Shown here in pieces: positions 1,985-9,450 of a stretch of DNA of 12,617 bases. The stretch comes from a virus. Taxonomy: Duplodnaviria > Heunggongvirae > Uroviricota > Caudoviricetes. The stretch is from the IMG/VR virus record IMGVR_UViG_646862323_000004. One strand, written 5' to 3'. The notes beneath the pieces were generated by a model. It was not told where the DNA came from. It saw only the letters and a program-made list of their open reading frames with translations, and searched no databases. A program made the position numbers and the translations under genes. The stretch's first letter is position 1; every line of letters starts with the position of its first letter.

Positions 1985-2794
1985 TTATTCCTCTGAATTA
2001 TCGATTACACTGTATTCCCCGGTTAATACAGAGGAATCTGCAGGATCGATTGTCAGTGGTTCCTTTTCATCCATTGATACTGCACGCTGGATCTCAATTG
2101 ATACGGGCAGATATTTGAACAGGCGACGAATAGCCGTTTTCTTTGCCATTTCTTCCCAGTGAGTTACCCACGGCCCGTTATTACCAGCTTTACTCAGGCT
2201 GCGCACCAGCTCAATCTGTTTGCGCGTCATAACTTCAAACTGAGTACCTCCGTCTTTCAGTCTTGCGACAGCATAGACGTGGGTAACCGGGGCATCTTCG
2301 TTTTCTCCCGGGCGGTGTATTAACTTTTCATCAAGGCCAAATTCGAAGCTAAACTCGTCACCTTCACGGACAACACGGGCTGACAGGCTGGCGATTTGAC
2401 CAGAACGGCGAGCCAGATCAATCATGCCGCGATAGCCAATGATTAGCTGAACGTTCTTTTTACCGCTCTTTTCGTTTTTATTACCAAAAGGCAGTAAATA
2501 TGCATGACCGAGGGCGCTACCTGGCTCAAGTCCGAGCTGTGAACACTGTACGATCGCACTGACAAAACTCATAGTGTCACAGTTTCCTAACGCCGGAACT
2601 TTACGAATTTCTGTGGTGGCGATACGGATCATACGTTCAGCCGTCATATGGCGTGGAAGAGCTGCTGCCAGTTGCTCTTTCATTGATGGCTGGTTAATAA
2701 AACTAATCACGTCGCTATTTTTAACTGCTGCTGGTGCACGGTTTCCCTGAGTTTTTTGCAGATCGGCTTTTGCGATTGGTGGTTGCTTAGTCAT
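1985..2794 (-). CDS. recT: RecT single-strand annealing protein, 269 aa
   Basis: ORF translation from the ATG at 2794-2792 ([17 protein letters not shown]...) matches my recollection of RecT over its whole length. The track ORF has 19 extra upstream codons. Confidence 0.93.
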
Positions 2795-3629
2795 TTGCAT
2801 ATTCCTTAGCCCAGCGGGGTAGTGATAATGTCTTAATAGCTGGCCATTCATCGGTATTCAGGCAGTCAGACAGGGTTCGCAGATTGCGGTGATATTCCTG
2901 TTGACCTGCCAGTTTTGCTTCTTCGCCCATCATGAAAATTTCAACCGGATAACGTCCGCATTCAATAGTTGTGCTGGCAACCAGAAAAACGAAAGTTGGC
3001 TGCACTCCAAACTGTGCTTCATAACCGTCACTGTAGAATGCATCCTGAACGTGATAGCGGTAGTCGTAATAAGCGGTTTTGAATCGTTGAATATCCGCCG
3101 TAGTTTTCACGTCCATGATCCAGTGAAATTCAGGGATAATTTTGTCCGGACGGCACCGACACAAAATTCCTGTTTCAGGATCTTCCCAGTAAATTGATGA
3201 TTCAGCGTGTCCGGCGCTTTCAACAAGCCATTGCCCCAGCGGCAAAGCCATAACGCTTTGATACATGAGTTCAATTTTCCGGCCTTCTTCCGCAGTGATA
3301 ACCGTTTTTCCTGTGCTTGCGCATTCCATCAGAAACGCTTTCTCTTCTTCTTTTCCGGCGTTTGTACGGCGGTTAAATTCAGGTGCTACGATAAAGCGGT
3401 TACTGAATTCTTCCGGTTCAAGTACCCGGCAGTGGAAAGCAGTTCCTAAATCGAGCGTTTTTGTCTTTGTGGTGTCCACGGGGGCATTTTTACGCCACAA
3501 ATATAGTGCCGGAGTATCAGCAATGTCATCGAGCTGAGACTTACTGATACCGGGACCCGCGTGGTAATTCTCATTCGAAATTCCGTAATAAATACCTGGC
3601 TCTATGTCTTCTACGATTTTAGTTCCCAT
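2787..3629 (-). CDS. recE: RecE C-terminal exonuclease-domain ORF, 280 aa, out of frame with the recE N-terminal fragment
   Basis: Translation (…[23 protein letters not shown]...[13 protein letters not shown]) corresponds to roughly the last 280 residues of the 866-aa RecE as I recall it. It begins with an ATG at 3629-3627 created by the junction, with no clear Shine-Dalgarno upstream. Confidence 0.8.
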
Positions 3630-3886
3630 GTCATGGAGTCTTTGCTGAGTTGATAGCGTTCACTCCAGGTAAAATCGATCTCACCTTCAGCGGGCAGGTC
3701 ATTAACGACAGGAAAATTCGTGGCAACAGCTTTAAAATAGCTGCTCAGTTTTTTACCTGACTTAACGATCAGGTAGTCCAGAGTGGCACAGGTCGATTCA
3801 AAATCGTTGCTTGCCCACAGGACGACGTCAGGTTCACCGGATGATTTTTTCGCTTTCCGTAACAGGAAGAGTGGTTTTGTGCTCAT
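3611..3886 (-). pseudogene. recE: RecE N-terminal fragment (about 90 aa) ending in a premature TAG after a deletion junction
   Basis: [24 protein letters not shown]...KDSMTWELK is the RecE N-terminus as I recall it, then S-stop. It overlaps the C-terminal ORF by 19 nt in a different frame, so about 500 codons of recE are missing. Confidence 0.72.
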
Positions 3887-5659: not shown

Positions 5660-5811
5660 CTTACTGTGTGCTTCTCCAACCATCGGCGCGCACCAGTTTC
5701 GGTTTTAAATGTTTTGCTTTTGGTATACGTCATGGCAGTGAACGTTCCATCCTGGTTGGGGAACACGCCGCACACCAGGGATTCGTTGTTGCCGAGGTCG
5801 ATTTTTTGCAT
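5656..5811 (-). CDS. ydaF: YdaF-like small protein, 51 aa
   Basis: Hand-translated ORF absent from the track: MQKIDLGNNESLVCGVFPNQDGTFTAMTYTKSKTFKTETGARRWLEKHTVS. Its stop overlaps the convergent sieB stop. Confidence 0.72.
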   Translation of the reverse strand: MQKIDLGNNESLVCGVFPNQDGTFTAMTYTKSKTFKTETGARRWLEKHTVS

Positions 5812-5821
5812 TTTTCGCACC

Positions 5822-5956
5822 TCACATCTTGTTGTTGCGGATAGAGGCTTCTGCTTGCCAGAGATCCCAGTCGTTGCTACGTAAAGCCTGCACAGCCGGG
5901 CTGTAAGTGATACCGCAACAATCCATCAAATACTGAACTACTTCGTAATGCACCAT
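5822..5956 (-). CDS. ydaG: YdaG-like small protein, 44 aa
   Basis: Hand-translated ORF absent from the track: [52 protein letters not shown] ribosome-binding site lies 7 nt upstream of the ATG at 5956-5954. Confidence 0.72.
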
Positions 5957-5978
5957 CTTATCTCTCCCCTTAACGCCG

Positions 5979-6167
5979 GGTGTCGCCTATGGCACCTCCG
6001 CAGGCAGTGCTGGCTACTGGTTTTTACAGTTGCTCGATAGAGTCACGCCCTCACAGTGGGCAGCAATAGGTGTGCTGGGTAGTCTGGTGTTTGGCCTGTT
6101 GACGTATCTGACAAATCTTTATTTCAAGATTAAAGAAGATAAGCGTAAGGCTGCACGGGGAGAGTAA
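5979..6167 (+). pseudogene. 5'-truncated class II pinholin (phage 21 S21 / EssD-like); first 9 or so codons and the start codon missing
   Basis: The in-frame translation [62 protein letters not shown]-stop matches S21 residues 10-71 as I recall them. There is no ATG, GTG or TTG start in frame after the upstream stop at 5946. Confidence 0.75.
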
Positions 6168-6171
6168 TTCA

Positions 6172-6516
6172 ATGACTCAAAACTATGAACTGATTGTGAA
6201 AGGGATCCGCAATTTTGAGAATAAAGTTACGGTAACTTTAGCGTTACGGGACAAAAAACGCTTTGACGGTGAAATTTTAGACCTGGACATCTCGCTGGAC
6301 CGTGTTGAAGGTGCCGCGCTGGAGTTTTATGAGGCAGCAGCCAGAAGGAGCATCAGACAGGTCTTCCTGGATGTTGCTGCAGGGTTATGTGAAGGGGATG
6401 AGCAGTCACCGGAAAAGCGCCCCATAATTTTAGAGGCGCAGGGTGTGTGGATAACCTACAAAGGAAAACTGCCGGGAAGAATTACTGGTTCACTGAAGAC
6501 TCCGCCGAAATGGTAA
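6172..6516 (+). CDS. DUF1327-family protein (Qin YdfR-like), 114 aa, in the lysis cassette
   Basis: ATG at 6172 lies 5 nt after the pinholin stop. The translation (MTQNYELIVKGIRNFENKVTVTLALRDKKRFDGE...) resembles the YdfR family found between holin and endolysin genes in Qin-type prophages. Confidence 0.78.
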   Translation: MTQNYELIVKGIRNFENKVTVTLALRDKKRFDGEILDLDISLDRVEGAALEFYEAAARRSIRQVFLDVAAGLCEGDEQSPEKRPIILEAQGVWITYKGKLPGRITGSLKTPPKW

Positions 6517-6754
6517 TTTCACCAGCATATTTTTCTTCCAGTAATACCGCCAGCCACTTGAAAGAATTTTGTTGTTGCTGGGACCATTTGGGGTTGAGTG
6601 ATTCAAGCTGGAGCGATGCCAGTGTTGGTTGCATTTGTTCCTTGGGAATTGAGAATGCCAGATATGAAAATGCGACAGTAAGGGCATTTACATCATCCCG
6701 AAGCTTGGAAATGCAGTCGAGCAACTCCTGTAGAGAAATGGTGCTATTGTCCAT
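6482..6754 (-). CDS. Hypothetical 90-aa protein of predicted helical character, convergent with and overlapping the DUF1327 gene
   Basis: ATG at 6754-6752 is preceded by GAGAGGA at about 7-nt spacing. Codon usage is coding-like, whereas the competing plus-strand ORF 6447-6779 translates to Ser/Cys-rich junk. I recognise no family. Confidence 0.45.
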   Translation of the reverse strand: MDNSTISLQELLDCISKLRDDVNALTVAFSYLAFSIPKEQMQPTLASLQLESLNPKWSQQQQNSFKWLAVLLEEKYAGEITISAESSVNQ

Positions 6755-6859
6755 AAACAATCCTCTCTATTGTATTTAACTATTCCTTGCCTGATTCAAC
6801 AGGCCGGGACAGATAAACATATCCAGGGTTCAGAAACCGATAAATCCTGATAAATATCC

Positions 6860-7393
6860 ATGAACGCAAAAATCAGATACGGCCTGTCGGCTGCCGTTCT
6901 GGCACTGATTGCCGTCGGTGCGCCTGCGCCTGATATTCTCGACCAGTTTCTGGATGAAAAAGAAGGTAACCACACAACGGCATACCGCGATGGTTCCGGT
7001 ATATGGACCATCTGTCGTGGTGCCACAATGGTGGATGGTAAGCCCGTCATACCGGGAATGAGGCTGTCGAAGGAAAAATGCGACCAGGTTAACGCTATTG
7101 AACGTGATAAGGCGCTGGCATGGGTGGAGCGCAATATTAAAGTACCACTGACCGAACCACAGAAAGCGGGTATAGCGTCATTTTGTCCCTATAACATTGG
7201 CCCCGGTAAGTGTTTCCCGTCGACGTTTTATAAGCGGCTGAATGCCGGTGATCGTAAGGGTGCATGCGAGGCGATTCGCTGGTGGATAAAAGATGGTGGG
7301 CGCGATTGCCGCATACGTTCAAATAACTGCTATGGACAGGTTATTCGTCGTGACCAGGAAAGCGCATTAGCCTGTTGGGGGATAGATCAGTGA
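6860..7393 (+). CDS. SAR endolysin (phage lysozyme, T4-lysozyme/GH24 type; R21/RrrD-like), 177 aa
   Basis: N-terminal Gly/Ala-rich signal-anchor-release segment ([17 protein letters not shown]) followed by the E...D...T catalytic motif ([18 protein letters not shown]). No Shine-Dalgarno is visible upstream of the ATG. Confidence 0.9.
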
Positions 7394-7854
7394 GCAGAGT
7401 CGCCGCGATTATTTATGCTCTGGTTATCTGCATCATCGTCTGCCTGTCATGGGCTGTTAATCATTACCGTGATAACGCCACCGCCTACAAAGAGCAGCGC
7501 GACAAAAATGCCAGAGAACTGAAGCTGGCGAACGCGGCAATTACTGACATGCAGATGCGTCAGCGTGATGTTGCTGCGCTCGATGCAAAATACACGAAGG
7601 AGTTAGCTGATGCGAAAGCTGAAAATGATGCTCTGCGTGATGATGTTGCCGCTGGTCGTCGTCGGTTGCACATCAAAGCAGTCTGTCAGTCAGTGCGTGA
7701 AGCCACCACCGCCTCCGGCGTGGATAATGCAGCCTCCCCCCGACTGGCAGACACCGCTGAACGGGATTATTTCACCCTCCGGGAACGACTGGTAATGATG
7801 CAGGCCCAACTTGAAGGTGCTCAGCAATACATAACCGAACAGTGTTTAAAGTAA
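7390..7854 (+). CDS. rzpR: Rz-type i-spanin, 154 aa from a GTG start overlapping the endolysin stop (GTGA)
   Basis: N-terminal transmembrane helix ([19 protein letters not shown]) followed by a charged coiled-coil region. The track ORF starts 5 codons upstream at a TTG. Confidence 0.85.
7610..7795 (+). CDS. rzoR: Rz1-type o-spanin lipoprotein, 61 aa, nested in the +1 frame of Rz
   Basis: AAGGAG ribosome-binding site before the ATG. Signal peptide with lipobox (LVVVGC) and a proline-rich mature region ([15 protein letters not shown]), entirely embedded within the Rz gene. Confidence 0.88.
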
Positions 7855-7991
7855 AATCTTAACTACAATATGATTCATTTTGATGATTGTTTCATAAGGA
7901 ACAGTGAAGTAAGATCTAAGAGGAGTTAAATTTTATACAGTATAATCATAATATTGCAGCAAGGTGGTTATAATTGAAAGAATATTTAGAT

Positions 7992-9450
7992 ATGAATACA
8001 TCTCATGTAAGAGTTGTTACTCATATGTGTGGGTTCCTGGTTTGGCTCTATAGTCTTTCAATGTTGCCACCAATGGTTGTAGCATTGTTTTATAAAGAAA
8101 AAAGCCTATTCGTTTTCTTTATAACTTTCGTTATATTTTTTTGTCATTGGTGGCGGAGCGTGGTATACAACTAAGAAATCTGGCATTCAATTACGTACCC
8201 GTGATGGGTTTATTATAATTGTAATGTTTTGGATTTTGTTTTCTGTTATTAGTGCATTCCCTTTATGGATTGACTCAGAACTTAATTTAACGTTCATTGA
8301 TGCTCTGTTTGAAGGGGTTTCTGGAATAACAACAACAGGAGCAACTGTAATTGATGATGTTAGTTCATTACCTCGGGCATATTTGTACTATCGGTCACAG
8401 TTAAATTTTATAGGTGGTTTAGGAGTTATTGTTCTGGCGGTTGCTGTATTGCCATTATTGGGTATTGGTGGTGCAAAGCTTTATCAGTCAGAAATGCCGG
8501 GGCCATTTAAGGATGACAAACTCACTCCCCGCCTGGCCGATACGTCACGGACACTGTGGATAACTTATTCTTTATTAGGTATTGCTTGTATTGTCTGTTA
8601 TAGACTTGCAGGAATGCCTTTGTTTGATGCTATTTGTCACGGGATTTCCACAGTTTCGCTTGGTGGTTTCTCAACTCATAGCGAGAGTATCGGATATTTT
8701 AATAACTATTTGGTTGAGCTGGTGGCTGGTTCTTTTTCCCTGCTATCGGCTTTCAACTTCACTCTTTGGTATATTGTTATTAGCAGGAAAACGATAAAAC
8801 CTTTAATCAGAGATATTGAACTTCGTTTCTTTCTGTTAATAGCCTTAGGGGTGATCATTGTTACCTCTTTCCAGGTCTGGCATATAGGTATGTATGACTT
8901 GCATGGAAGTTTTATTCATTCGTTTTTTCTTGCCAGCTCCATGCTCACTGATAATGGTTTAGCTACGCAGGATTATGCAAGCTGGCCCACGCACACGATA
9001 GTGTTTTTGCTGTCGTCAAGTTTCTTTGGGGGATGTATAGGTTCAACTTGTGGTGGAATTAAGTCACTTCGATTTCTTATACTTTTCAAACAAAGCAAAC
9101 ACGAGATAAATCAGCTTTCTCATCCCAGAGCGTTGTTGAGTGTAAATGTAGGAGGGAAGATAGTTACAGATCGTGTAATGAGGTCTGTATGGAGTTTCTT
9201 TTTTCTTTATACTCTCTTCACGGTGTTTTTTATACTGGTGTTAAATGGTATGGGATATGATTTTCTTACATCATTTGCAACAGTGGCTGCATGTATTAAT
9301 AATATGGGATTAGGTTTTGGGGCTACTGCATCGTCATTCGGAGTGCTTAATGACATTGCAAAATATTTAATGTGCATAGCTATGATTCTTGGTCGCCTTG
9401 AAATTTATCCTGTTATTATATTGTTTTCAGGTTTTTTTTGGCGCTCCTAA
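7992..9450 (+). pseudogene. trkG: TrkG potassium-uptake protein gene disrupted by a +1 frameshift (extra C near 8145)
   Basis: Frame 3 reads MNTSHVRVV...FVIFFC then HWWRSVVYN-stop (8172-8174). Frame 1 from 8146 reads IGGGAWYTTKKSGIQLRTRDGFIIIVMFW and continues to 9450. The span is 1459 nt, one more than 486 codons. The region is strongly AT-rich. Confidence 0.85.

Follow-up and report, generated by a model that had tools for sequence, protein, structure and literature searches.

A conserved small gene opposed to the lysis operon in the Rac prophage of Escherichia coli B, probably a self-contained moron unit

Results and Discussion

The locus and its annotation

The window, the whole stretch of 12,617 nucleotides that was analyzed, belongs to the Rac prophage of an E. 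coli B/BL21-type strain. On its minus strand it carries a 90-aa protein-coding gene (6482..6754, 273 nt, with the ATG at 6754 and the stop codon at 6484-6482), placed between two plus-strand genes. One of them is ydfR (DUF1327; 6172..6516; Pfam PF07041, E 8e-42), which belongs to the silent late/lysis operon, and the other is a lysozyme gene of the ydfQ/rrrQ type (6860..7393), a divergent neighbor that is silent in the lysogen. Since ydfR ends at 6516, the minus-strand ORF overlaps it along 6482-6516 (35 nt), and since the lysozyme gene begins at 6860, both are separated by a divergent spacer of 105 bp (6755-6859). Both figures, as well as the presence of a 90-aa antisense ORF with a good ribosome-binding site between the DUF1327 gene and the endolysin, had already been given in a preliminary description of this DNA and are borne out by the sequence, in which a strong Shine-Dalgarno, AGAGAGGA, has its GAGG at 6765-6762, 7 nt before the ATG. 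An in-frame TTG at 6760, upstream of the ATG, is used neither by homologs nor by PGAP.

The same description regarded the ORF as unrecognized, which does not hold. It is annotated as a hypothetical protein in REL606 (ECB_01336), BL21(DE3) (ECD_RS07140), E. coli C, S88, and CFT073, as well as in ~1,200 further complete genomes, and the identical RefSeq protein, WP_000370546.1, is found in E. coli C, REL606, and BL21(DE3). The PHROG 2411 profile covers residues 1-90 of 90 of the protein (hmmscan, E 4.3e-59), which is thus a full member of the PHROG 2411/WP_000370546.1 family, with no difference from it; the family carries no description. To this family we add its reach into Serratia, Sodalis, and Citrobacter, an assignment of ribosome-profiling reads, and a predicted three-helix fold. 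Nothing was found in the published literature on ybl58, WP_000370546.1, the locus tags, DUF1327 together with lysis, or ydfR together with holin, and the gene is absent from the supplements of a six-strain transcriptome paper.

Conservation of the antisense frame

Alignment of 205 IMG/VR loci is gapless over the 273 nt and comprises 42 distinct sequences, 37 of them with an intact frame. Variable sites among the distinct sequences distribute as 19, 19, and 42 over codon positions 1, 2, and 3, and the dN/dS of the minus-strand ORF is 0.31 among these related loci and 0.17 against the copy adjacent to iha, for which dS is ~1.3. Across 41 distinct natural variants, five in-frame stops are observed, while ~20 are expected when the same substitution numbers are placed randomly. 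Judged from these comparisons, the minus-strand ORF exceeds chance and its protein is under purifying selection. An ORF that is not conserved and tolerates stops in related prophages, the outcome that the preliminary description had named as contrary to its proposal, is therefore not what was found, the frame being conserved with dN/dS values of 0.17-0.31. Nonetheless, five singleton nonsense variants and several frameshifted variants of 94 aa occur, indicating that the gene is dispensable in some hosts.

Remote homologs and their contexts

Remote homologs of 81-99 aa, showing 28-40% identity and sharing the motif AFSYLAFS...L.FES.N, were found in Serratia, Chimaeribacter, Sodalis, Gibbsiella, and Chania, while copies in Citrobacter are closer (52-63% identity, 83-85 aa). 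A conserved protein family of the Enterobacterales is thereby flagged. The homolog of Serratia and Chimaeribacter occupies a fixed chromosomal slot, pyrC-dinI-X-bssS-solA. A link to the SOS response was considered and discarded: no LexA box is present near the gene in the window, and the LexA box in Serratia is that of dinI, with the dinI terminator preceding the homolog. The ORF unit also appears adjoining iha, in phage Chlobot, and in an Stx2k phage in which the lysozyme gene beside it is swapped for another lysis module. The Citrobacter copy adjoins a different holin, Phage_holin_2_3.

Upstream region and candidate promoters

The sequence preceding the ATG travels with the gene as a block of 116-128 nt conserved across contexts (6755..6882, minus strand), reaching 6882 in the iha-adjacent copy and 6870 in the Stx2k phage. 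Taking this conservation as a guide, the block probably holds the promoter of the gene. Its Shine-Dalgarno region is TAGAGAGG (6762..6769, minus strand), and the stretch GAGGATTRTTT-ATG is invariant in all 22 distinct upstream variants among the 205 related loci.

Two candidate promoters can be read on the minus strand. The one proposed in the preliminary description, P1 (6769..6799), consists of TTGAAT (6799-6794) and TACAAT (6774-6769) with a 19-nt spacer, and both hexamers are indeed present at these positions. Its predicted start near 6762 would sit on the Shine-Dalgarno and remove it, and its -35 hexamer is the loop of a small hairpin, GCCUG-UUGAAU-CAGGC (6789..6804, minus strand), at the edge of a segment that is present or absent among prophages. 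Analogous hairpins are seen upstream of the Citrobacter gene and of another antisense gene, that of E. coli THO-008, described below.

The second candidate, P2 (6816..6844), combines TTTATC (6844-6839), a 17-nt spacer, and TATGTT (6821-6816), agrees with the consensus at 8/12 positions, and would yield a leader of ~54 nt that retains the Shine-Dalgarno. It is conserved in 20/22 distinct upstream variants, single-locus variants showing one change per hexamer, and it is also found in the THO-008 cassette and in the iha copy, with TATGAT in the Citrobacter one. In variants lacking the ORF, CAGGTT replaces TATGTT in 3/6, while one of them keeps TATGTT, so that the correlation of this element with the presence of the antisense gene is imperfect. 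A consensus promoter scan returned no site above threshold in the spacer, P1 and P2 included. On balance, TTTATC-17-TATGTT is the preferred candidate promoter from the sequence features considered here.

Hairpin downstream of the gene

A terminator-like hairpin, GCGCCUC-(9 nt)-GGGGCGC followed by UUUU (6413..6439, minus strand), lies 42 nt past the stop codon, antisense within ydfR. Its 7-bp GC-rich stem is present in the minimum-free-energy fold. A terminator scan missed it because of its 9-nt loop and its run of only four U. Stem and U-run are unchanged in 198 of the 204 loci counted, with a stem change in 7 loci, and the hairpin is kept in the iha copy and in Citrobacter with one-sided changes that preserve pairing, although this conservation is confounded with coding constraint, as the hairpin sits in the ydfR coding sequence. 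No known RNA family was detected in 5800-7500.

Ribosome occupancy in published data

Published ribosome-profiling tables allow expression to be evaluated in REL606 (Favate et al., eLife 2022; PMC9645810), the values used here covering the ancestor and Ara-1 part of them. Supplementary file 1 lists, for Ara-1 replicate 1, 150 Ribo-seq reads (58.6 TPM) of ECB_01336 and 0 reads of ECB_01332-01335 and ECB_01337. In supplementary file 2, which combines replicates of the ancestor and Ara-1, its baseMean is 248, with a log2 fold change of -0.25, whereas its neighbors reach 0.1-0.85 (ydfR 0.47, lysozyme gene 0.85, holin stump <1). The second signal of the examined Rac segment is that of trkG, ~sevenfold under ECB_01336. 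Gene lengths in these tables (273, 345, 534, 138, 135, and 156 nt, each +50) fit the window, and ydfQ is named there as ECB_01337. The paper does not say whether its quantification was strand-specific, and the footprints are placed on the minus strand because ydfR and the lysozyme gene are free of them.

According to these tables, ribosomes occupy the gene in E. coli B (REL606) during exponential growth, with the neighboring Rac genes essentially silent. Lack of any ribosome footprint over 6482-6754, the other finding that the preliminary description had set against itself, is thus not supported, as REL606 reads of unspecified strand are assigned to the gene. Expression while flanking phage genes are silent is also a feature of morons, and the gene presents it as far as a source with unstated strand-specificity allows. 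Few bacterial strains are used as widely as BL21 and REL606, and in the examined Rac segment nearly all the Ribo-seq signal of these tables comes from this gene, which is yet nameless and belongs to a family with no description.

Predicted features of the protein

AlphaFold models exhibit three helices (8-35, 38-52, and 59-76) and a disordered tail, with mean pLDDT values of 77.5 and 80.5. The ~10 C-terminal residues, encoded in the overlap with ydfR, are the variable and disordered ones. The protein is acidic (pI 4.4; GRAVY -0.19) and has no membrane-spanning segment, its maximum Kyte-Doolittle score over 19 residues being 0.88. The product is thus predicted to be an acidic, soluble three-helix protein.

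Searches for function returned little. Pfam and NCBIfam have nothing for the protein, its remote homologs, or the protein of the alternative cassette, and PADLOC gives no match at E 0.1 or better for the protein, three remote homologs, and the alternative-cassette protein. PDB sequence profiles produced only noise (E ~0.5-1), and Foldseek against PDB and BFVD gave generic helical matches, none with E ≤0.001. Features of a member of the lysis cassette (holin, antiholin, endolysin, or spanin) are not displayed either, the gene lying on the opposite strand and its product having neither a membrane segment nor a Pfam lysis domain.

A mobile segment and an alternative cassette

Most of the gene lies in a 292-bp segment (6512..6803) that some collinear prophages lack and others replace. 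It is absent in SCEC020007 and two others, otherwise collinear, and in the K-12 prophage Qin ydfR abuts rrrQ; of 5,426 complete E. coli genomes, 1,221 carry the segment. The GC content of the segment is 0.425, to be compared with 0.475 for ydfR and 0.517 for the lysozyme gene, a modest difference. Both its presence in some relatives only and its composition agree with those of a moron.

In E. coli THO-008 and many others, the same site, with break points at 6508 and 6816, is occupied by an alternative antisense gene (WP_001557934.1, 86 aa). Both genes have the same orientation, similar size, and a common upstream backbone that includes TTTATC-17-TATGTT, and the alternative cassette is ordered as upstream backbone, hairpin, Shine-Dalgarno, ORF, and terminator. 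On the contrary, the alternative gene has its own canonical terminator with eight U, while the ORF has the hairpin inside ydfR. Homology between both proteins was discarded, since BLASTP found nothing and hhalign probabilities were ≤1.6%. The junction between ydfR and the endolysin gene thus appears as a recurrent insertion slot for antisense genes. The surroundings of the lysis cassette are seen more generally as a moron hot spot, with stx, iraM, and iss observed there.

Interpretation and alternative explanations

We consider it likely, with a probability of roughly 0.7, that the ORF is a bona fide small gene that forms a self-contained moron unit, inserted in reverse in the late lysis operon between ydfR and the endolysin gene. 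Its transcription would start no more than ~128 nt ahead of the ATG, either in the spacer or at the very beginning of the lysozyme gene, and would end at the hairpin and its four U (6439-6413) inside ydfR, in which case the ydaG-ydaF-kilR-recET genes would not be fed. Being head-on to late transcription, the gene should be on in the lysogen, and collision should silence it when the late operon becomes active.

It is scarcely credible that no gene exists here and that gene callers only keep an ORF that arose by chance or that mirrors a plus-strand coding sequence. A plus-strand ORF of 110 aa (6447-6779) does share its wobble positions with the minus-strand one and has a similarly low dN/dS (0.25), and no function or Pfam family is known for the minus-strand protein; because wobble positions coincide, codon-position periodicity alone cannot separate the ORF from its mirror frame. 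However, the plus-strand frame is broken by stops in 21/42 variants, and also in the iha copy, and matches neither PHROG nor Pfam, whereas for the minus-strand protein distant homologs of equal length occur in genomic contexts unrelated to each other, the predicted fold is confident, and ribosome footprints are recorded. Stop-codon retention and the distant homologs choose the minus-strand frame over the mirror one, and we regard the chance or mirror reading as refuted, the minus-strand ORF being a genuine, conserved prophage gene. The preliminary description made the ORF the possible first gene of a long leftward transcript which, in a Rac prophage devoid of its early region, would start at a spacer promoter, cross ydfR and the holin stump in antisense, and reach ydaG, ydaF, kilR, and recET. 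All these genes share the minus strand with the ORF, the native leftward promoter region is missing, with ydaG abutting the 5'-truncated holin at ~5956-5985, and the hairpin with four U is not a strong consensus terminator, so that some read-through is conceivable. Such a transcript is, even so, very doubtful: the hairpin is conserved and precedes the leftward genes, the same promoter-ORF-hairpin unit stands in intact phages and at non-phage sites with no ydaG operon downstream, and in the tables considered the ORF has a Ribo-seq baseMean of 248, while the ydaG-like gene has 0.12, ydaF 0.19, and kilR 0 (PMC9645810). The three genes are also left out of the combined RNA/Ribo analysis of that paper, which may reflect low counts. 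As far as these ribosome occupancies tell, which lie at ~0-0.2 for ydaG, ydaF, kilR, and recET, the co-expression with these genes that a first cistron of the Rac leftward operon would display is not seen, and the picture of a real gene standing by itself would replace that of a new long leftward operon.

Regarding what such a gene might do, a role in cis or at the RNA level, in which head-on transcription and antisense overlap with ydfR lock leaky lysis genes in the lysogen and the protein is secondary, would explain why orientation is always against the late operon and beside lysis genes in E. coli, the Stx2k phage, and Citrobacter. It would also agree with the unrelated antisense gene at exactly the same site in other prophages, as selection for antisense transcription itself would produce, and with the complementarity of the 3' UTR to ~100 nt of ydfR mRNA. 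We find it improbable, considering that (i) purifying selection acts on the protein sequence, (ii) 28-40% identity is kept in Serratia chromosomes, and the gene is also kept beside iha, both of them settings that offer no lysis genes to be silenced, and (iii) many prophages with the same lysis genes have no antisense gene. The protein might instead regulate lysis, for example by inhibiting the holin, YdfR, or the endolysin, and so set its timing or block premature lysis. Its position beside varied lysis cassettes (class II holin and lysozyme, a second holin with an M15 endolysin, and Phage_holin_2_3 in Citrobacter) and its tight linkage to the 3' end of ydfR, even in Citrobacter and in the iha remnant, are consistent with this role, which is nonetheless rather unlikely for a protein with no membrane segment whose gene, running opposite to the late operon, would fall silent at the very time the lysis proteins are made. 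Moreover, its Serratia chromosomal orthologs are flanked by dinI and bssS, away from any lysis genes, and a general hot spot for morons would by itself place the gene in these surroundings.

For the self-contained moron unit, our best guess is that its protein works by binding to a partner protein and influences host physiology in lysogeny rather than lysis. It is conceivable, though unlikely as a whole, that the family, including the prophage copies and the Serratia dinI-X-bssS gene, is an undescribed small acidic helical regulator that prophages express only in lysogeny, its head-on placement coupling shut-off to the onset of late transcription. Such a regulator might be a superinfection-exclusion or anti-defense factor, or an inhibitor of a host protein. 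If so, the junction between ydfR and the endolysin gene would serve as a dedicated site at which antisense genes specific to lysogeny are interchangeable.

Comparison with known systems

Among lambdoid phages, morons such as lambda bor run opposite to the late operon and are active in the repressed prophage. Bor and Iss, the products of bor and of its relative iss, are lipoproteins of the outer membrane that take part in serum resistance. Like morons of the lambda bor type, the ORF is a small extra gene of the late region, in opposite orientation and present in some relatives only, with GC below that of its flanks and expression in the lysogen while the late genes are silent, and it may have its own promoter and terminator. 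On the contrary, its protein is predicted to be cytoplasmic, acidic, and helical, and it lies between ydfR and the endolysin gene instead of after Rz, with its 3' end overlapping ydfR. Apart from the points raised above, there is nothing unusual about it as a prophage moron.

Embedded antisense overlapping genes have also been reported in E. coli, as collected in the reference list of PMC11101190, and the ORF resembles them in lying on the strand opposite to an annotated gene and partially overlapping it. Unlike them, only its last 35 nt overlap ydfR while its body occupies its own 292-bp segment, and the two genes thus form an ordinary convergent pair.

Identity and coding capacity of the minus-strand gene

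The minus-strand ORF at 6482-6754 is a real and expressed gene, but it had been annotated before, and the operon architecture proposed for it is unsupported. The window is a Rac-type prophage; it shows 100% identity with E. coli C over 5900-7000 and with REL606 over the cassette segment 6512-6803, and its internal recE deletion agrees with BL21-lineage records. The gene order around the ORF is sieB, ydaF, a ydaG-like gene (5822-5956, minus strand), a 5′-truncated class II holin gene (45-aa ORF 6030-6167, the PGAP call beginning at 5955), ydfR/DUF1327 (6172-6516, plus strand), the ORF itself, the lysozyme gene (6860-7393, plus strand), Rz/Rz1 and trkG. As the preliminary description had it, the ORF comprises 273 nt and 90 aa, overlaps ydfR by 35 nt, is separated from the lysozyme gene by 105 bp, and has a good ribosome-binding site, with the Shine-Dalgarno sequence (SD) AGAGAGGA followed 7 nt further on by the ATG. 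Contrary to that description, it is not unrecognised: the very same CDS is annotated by PGAP as a 'hypothetical protein', WP_000370546.1, identical across E. coli C, REL606 (ECB_RS07100) and BL21(DE3) (ECD_RS07140), with near variants annotated in S88 and elsewhere. A match to PHROG 2411 (function unknown) covers the whole protein (E 4e-59), while Pfam, NCBIfam and PADLOC returned no family for it. The 292-bp segment carrying the ORF occurs in 1,221 of 5,426 complete E. coli genomes, CFT073 among them, and in three deposited phage genomes.

Conservation in related prophages bears out the claim of a gene. The 205 related IMG/VR loci align without gaps over the 273 nt and reduce to 42 distinct sequences with at most 44 differences, 37 of which keep the frame open, all beginning with ATG. 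Codon positions 1, 2 and 3 have 19, 19 and 42 variable sites, dN/dS among these variants is 0.31, and in-frame stops appear in 5 variants, each seen once, against ~20 of 41 expected if as many substitutions as observed fell on random positions. The iha-adjacent copy of strain F11, at 72% identity, keeps the 90 codons with a dN/dS of 0.17 at dS ~1.3, and an IncF plasmid copy adjoining an autotransporter gene has 92 codons. Judged from these alignments, the ORF is a real coding sequence. Truncated forms and frameshifted 94-aa variants also exist, so the gene is sometimes lost, as expected for decaying prophages.

A plus-strand mirror ORF (6447-6779, 110 aa) spans the entire minus-strand gene and shows the same coding periodicity (dN/dS 0.25) because the wobble positions coincide; it is interrupted by stops in 21 of the 42 sequences, and no family match was found for it. 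Frame tests applied to antisense ORFs should allow for such mimicry. The two diverged copies lying outside any lysis cassette (comparison loci L210, 2446-2718, and L209, 2471-2749) are both flanked by transposase remnants, one being divergent from iha (siderophore receptor/adhesin) and the other located by the IncF-plasmid autotransporter gene; the iha copy retains remnants of the spacer upstream of the lysozyme gene and of the ydfR 3′ end.

Expression in the lysogen

Ribosome occupancy was evaluated from the supplementary count tables of Favate et al. (eLife 2022, PMC9645810), recorded for exponential-phase cultures in glucose minimal medium. For ECB_01331-01337 and ECB_01339, transcripts are listed with lengths (each gene plus 50 nt) of 539, 206, 185, 188, 395, 323, 584 and 1508, which are those of sieB, ydaF, the ydaG-like gene, the holin stump, ydfR, the ORF, the lysozyme gene (ECB_01337, named ydfQ, 'predicted lysozyme') and trkG, and because of this match the old REL606 tag of the ORF is taken to be ECB_01336. 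In Ribo-seq replicate 1 of Ara-1 this tag has 150 reads (58.6 TPM), with 0 reads for ECB_01328-01335 and ECB_01337. In the Ribo-seq DESeq2 table comparing Ara-1 with four ancestor replicates, its baseMean is 248 (log2 fold change -0.25), and the other values are 0.19 for ydaF, 0.12 for the ydaG-like gene, 0.10 for the holin stump, 0.47 for ydfR, 0.85 for lysozyme and 35 for trkG. Multi-mapping is no issue since the segment is single-copy in REL606, and no Rfam family was detected at the ORF region. PMC9645810 leaves the strand-awareness of its quantification unstated; the only plus-strand genes able to read through the ORF region are ydfR and the lysozyme gene, and as both lack footprints in these tables, the minus-strand ORF is the parsimonious source. 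Within the data of this source, the ORF is thus shown to be ribosome-occupied in the lysogen while its flanks are silent.

Probable limits of the transcription unit

Homology 5′ of the ATG ends at 6870 in the Stx2k phage and at 6882 in the iha copy, and therefore the promoter should lie within ~128 nt of the ATG. The hexamers of the preliminary description, TTGAAT (6799-6794) and TACAAT (6774-6769), are indeed present with 19 nt between them; the '-35' is, though, the loop of a small hairpin (6804-6789), and a start ~7 nt past TACAAT would land on the SD. Another candidate, TTTATC-17-TATGTT (6844-6816, minus strand), agrees with the consensus at 8 of 12 positions and would leave the SD whole in a leader of ~54 nt. 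This element is kept in 20 of 22 distinct upstream variants, with single-locus variants showing one change per hexamer, and also in the alternative cassette of THO-008 and in the iha copy; Citrobacter reads TATGAT. Among six ORF-less variants, CAGGTT replaces TATGTT in three and TATGTT is kept in one.

At the other end, a terminator-like hairpin, GCGCCUC-(9 nt)-GGGGCGC followed by UUUU (6439-6413, minus strand), lies 42 nt past the stop codon and belongs to the minimum-free-energy fold. Stem and U-run are unchanged in 198 of the 204 loci counted, with a stem change in 7 loci, and the hairpin is kept, with one-sided pairing-preserving changes, in the decayed iha-adjacent ydfR remnant and in Citrobacter, where the automatic alignment puts one arm out of register. 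Its role as a terminator is only suggestive, because it falls below the criteria of the terminator scan and sits within ydfR coding sequence. In PMC9645810, the minus-strand genes downstream of the ORF show essentially no ribosome footprints and are missing from the combined RNA/Ribo analysis, which may reflect low counts.

The upstream block, ORF and hairpin also occur as a set where no ydaG operon is present. In phage Chlobot and S88 they separate holin-ydfR from lysozyme, in the Stx2k phage they have ydfR on one side and a second holin plus M15 endolysin on the other, and a further copy adjoins iha. The ORF hence behaves as a self-contained unit, and the hairpin, the footprint-poor downstream genes and these arrangements all speak against the proposal that it heads a leftward operon into ydaG. 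Its own promoter would lie within 6755-6882, its transcript would end at 6413-6439, and head-on late transcription in lytic growth would probably switch it off.

Just upstream of the conserved block in phiSTEC1575-Stx2k (locus L228, 2880-2920), a strong terminator-like hairpin, GGGCCGCUGGAGGCCC with six U after it, is encoded on the late strand and lies between the antisense gene and the second holin/M15-endolysin module; with this module, the phage has two holin genes flanking the pair formed by ydfR and the antisense gene.

The insertion site between ydfR and the lysozyme gene

Comparison of close relatives shows, at a single site, a conserved protein-coding gene that some carry, some lack and some have replaced. 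Homology with SCEC020007 and two similar prophages stops at 6511 and restarts at 6804, while that with THO-008 breaks at 6508 and 6816, the gap being filled by a different cassette, in which the same upstream backbone is followed by a hairpin, an SD, an 86-aa ORF (WP_001557934.1) and an eight-U canonical terminator. No relatedness of WP_001557934.1 to the 90-aa protein was detectable. In K-12 Qin the ydfR C-terminus is different, and the ydfR stop overlaps the rrrQ start. The GC content of the segment is 0.425, versus 0.475 for ydfR and 0.517 for the lysozyme gene. Presence, absence or replacement at one site together with lower GC being hallmarks of a moron, the segment is considered one, and the ORF an uncharacterised member of this known kind of prophage element.

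The THO-008 antisense cassette (L207, 2040-2531) is equivalent to window 6509-6815 and truncates ydfR; WP_001557934.1 belongs to a cluster of >200 member sequences, and its terminator reads GCCGC...GCGGC followed by eight T. The K-12 Qin overlap (L206, 1990-2005) takes the form ATGA, which suggests, from sequence, ydfR-rrrQ translational coupling; any antisense cassette or spacer in between breaks this putative coupling. The lysozyme start of the window (6840-6862) reads AAATATCC-ATG, without a recognisable Shine-Dalgarno.

Wider family, predicted structure and possible role

Profile searches, first of 1.8 billion representatives and then of a 5.8-billion set, indicate that the family extends beyond Escherichia. 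Homologs of 81-99 aa and 28-40% identity were found in Serratia (many species), Chimaeribacter, Gibbsiella, Chania, Sodalis and Acerihabitans, those of Citrobacter being nearer (52-63%), and all share the motif ELL..I..L....L..AFSYLAFS......L...L.FES.N. The Serratia and Chimaeribacter homolog, X, occupies a fixed chromosomal slot, pyrC-dinI-X-bssS-solA (31-35% identity; L212 5001-5282, L217 4001-4285 and L220 4001-4270). In S. marcescens a LexA box and a terminator belong to dinI itself, so X seems to form a unit apart from it. In a Citrobacter freundii prophage, the homolog and a holin-lysozyme pair of another kind diverge; as in the window, the homolog runs against the late operon and converges on a ydfR-like C-terminal fragment.

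AlphaFold2 predicts three helices (8-35, 38-52 and 59-76), the same from alignments of 14 and 47 sequences (mean pLDDT 77.5 and 80.5, respectively), with the C-terminal 8-10 residues, encoded within the ydfR overlap, disordered and variable. The protein is acidic (pI 4.4), no membrane segment was found in it, and comparing its fold and sequence with solved and viral structures gave generic helical matches only.

Its antisense position between ydfR and the lysozyme gene might suggest a 'safety lock' acting in cis or by antisense on the lysis genes, a reading that, set beside the dN/dS of 0.31 and the Serratia and iha-adjacent copies, is improbable. That the protein itself regulates lysis would suit its recurrence by holin-lysozyme genes, in Citrobacter too, but is likewise doubtful, the Serratia homologs being chromosomal. 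The favoured guess is a function directed at the host, exerted in the lysogen by binding to another protein; it draws on the small size, acidity, solubility and helical fold of the product, on the orthologs in Serratia chromosomes, and on one copy that sits in a virulence-island context.

Other features of the window

The recE gene (2787-3886, minus strand) has an internal deletion of ~1.5 kb, leaving a 91-aa N-terminal ORF (3611-3886) and then an out-of-frame 280-aa C-terminal nuclease part (2787-3629); recE is intact (2,601 nt) in REL606 and E. coli C, and BL21-lineage records match the window exactly. The trkG gene (7974-9450) appears in two frames (ORFs 7974-8174 and 8224-9450), likewise split in E. 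coli C (annotated as frameshifted) and annotated as intact (1,458 nt) in REL606 and in the BL21(DE3) RefSeq record; the window thus has both a BL21-type recE deletion and a frameshift in trkG. The junction of the Rac early-region deletion is at 5955-6030, where the start codon of the ydaG-like gene (5954-5956, minus strand) abuts the class II holin gene lacking its native first ~8 codons. The PGAP essD call is 213 nt long from 5955, where the codon is ATC, and the first canonical start is a TTG at 6030.
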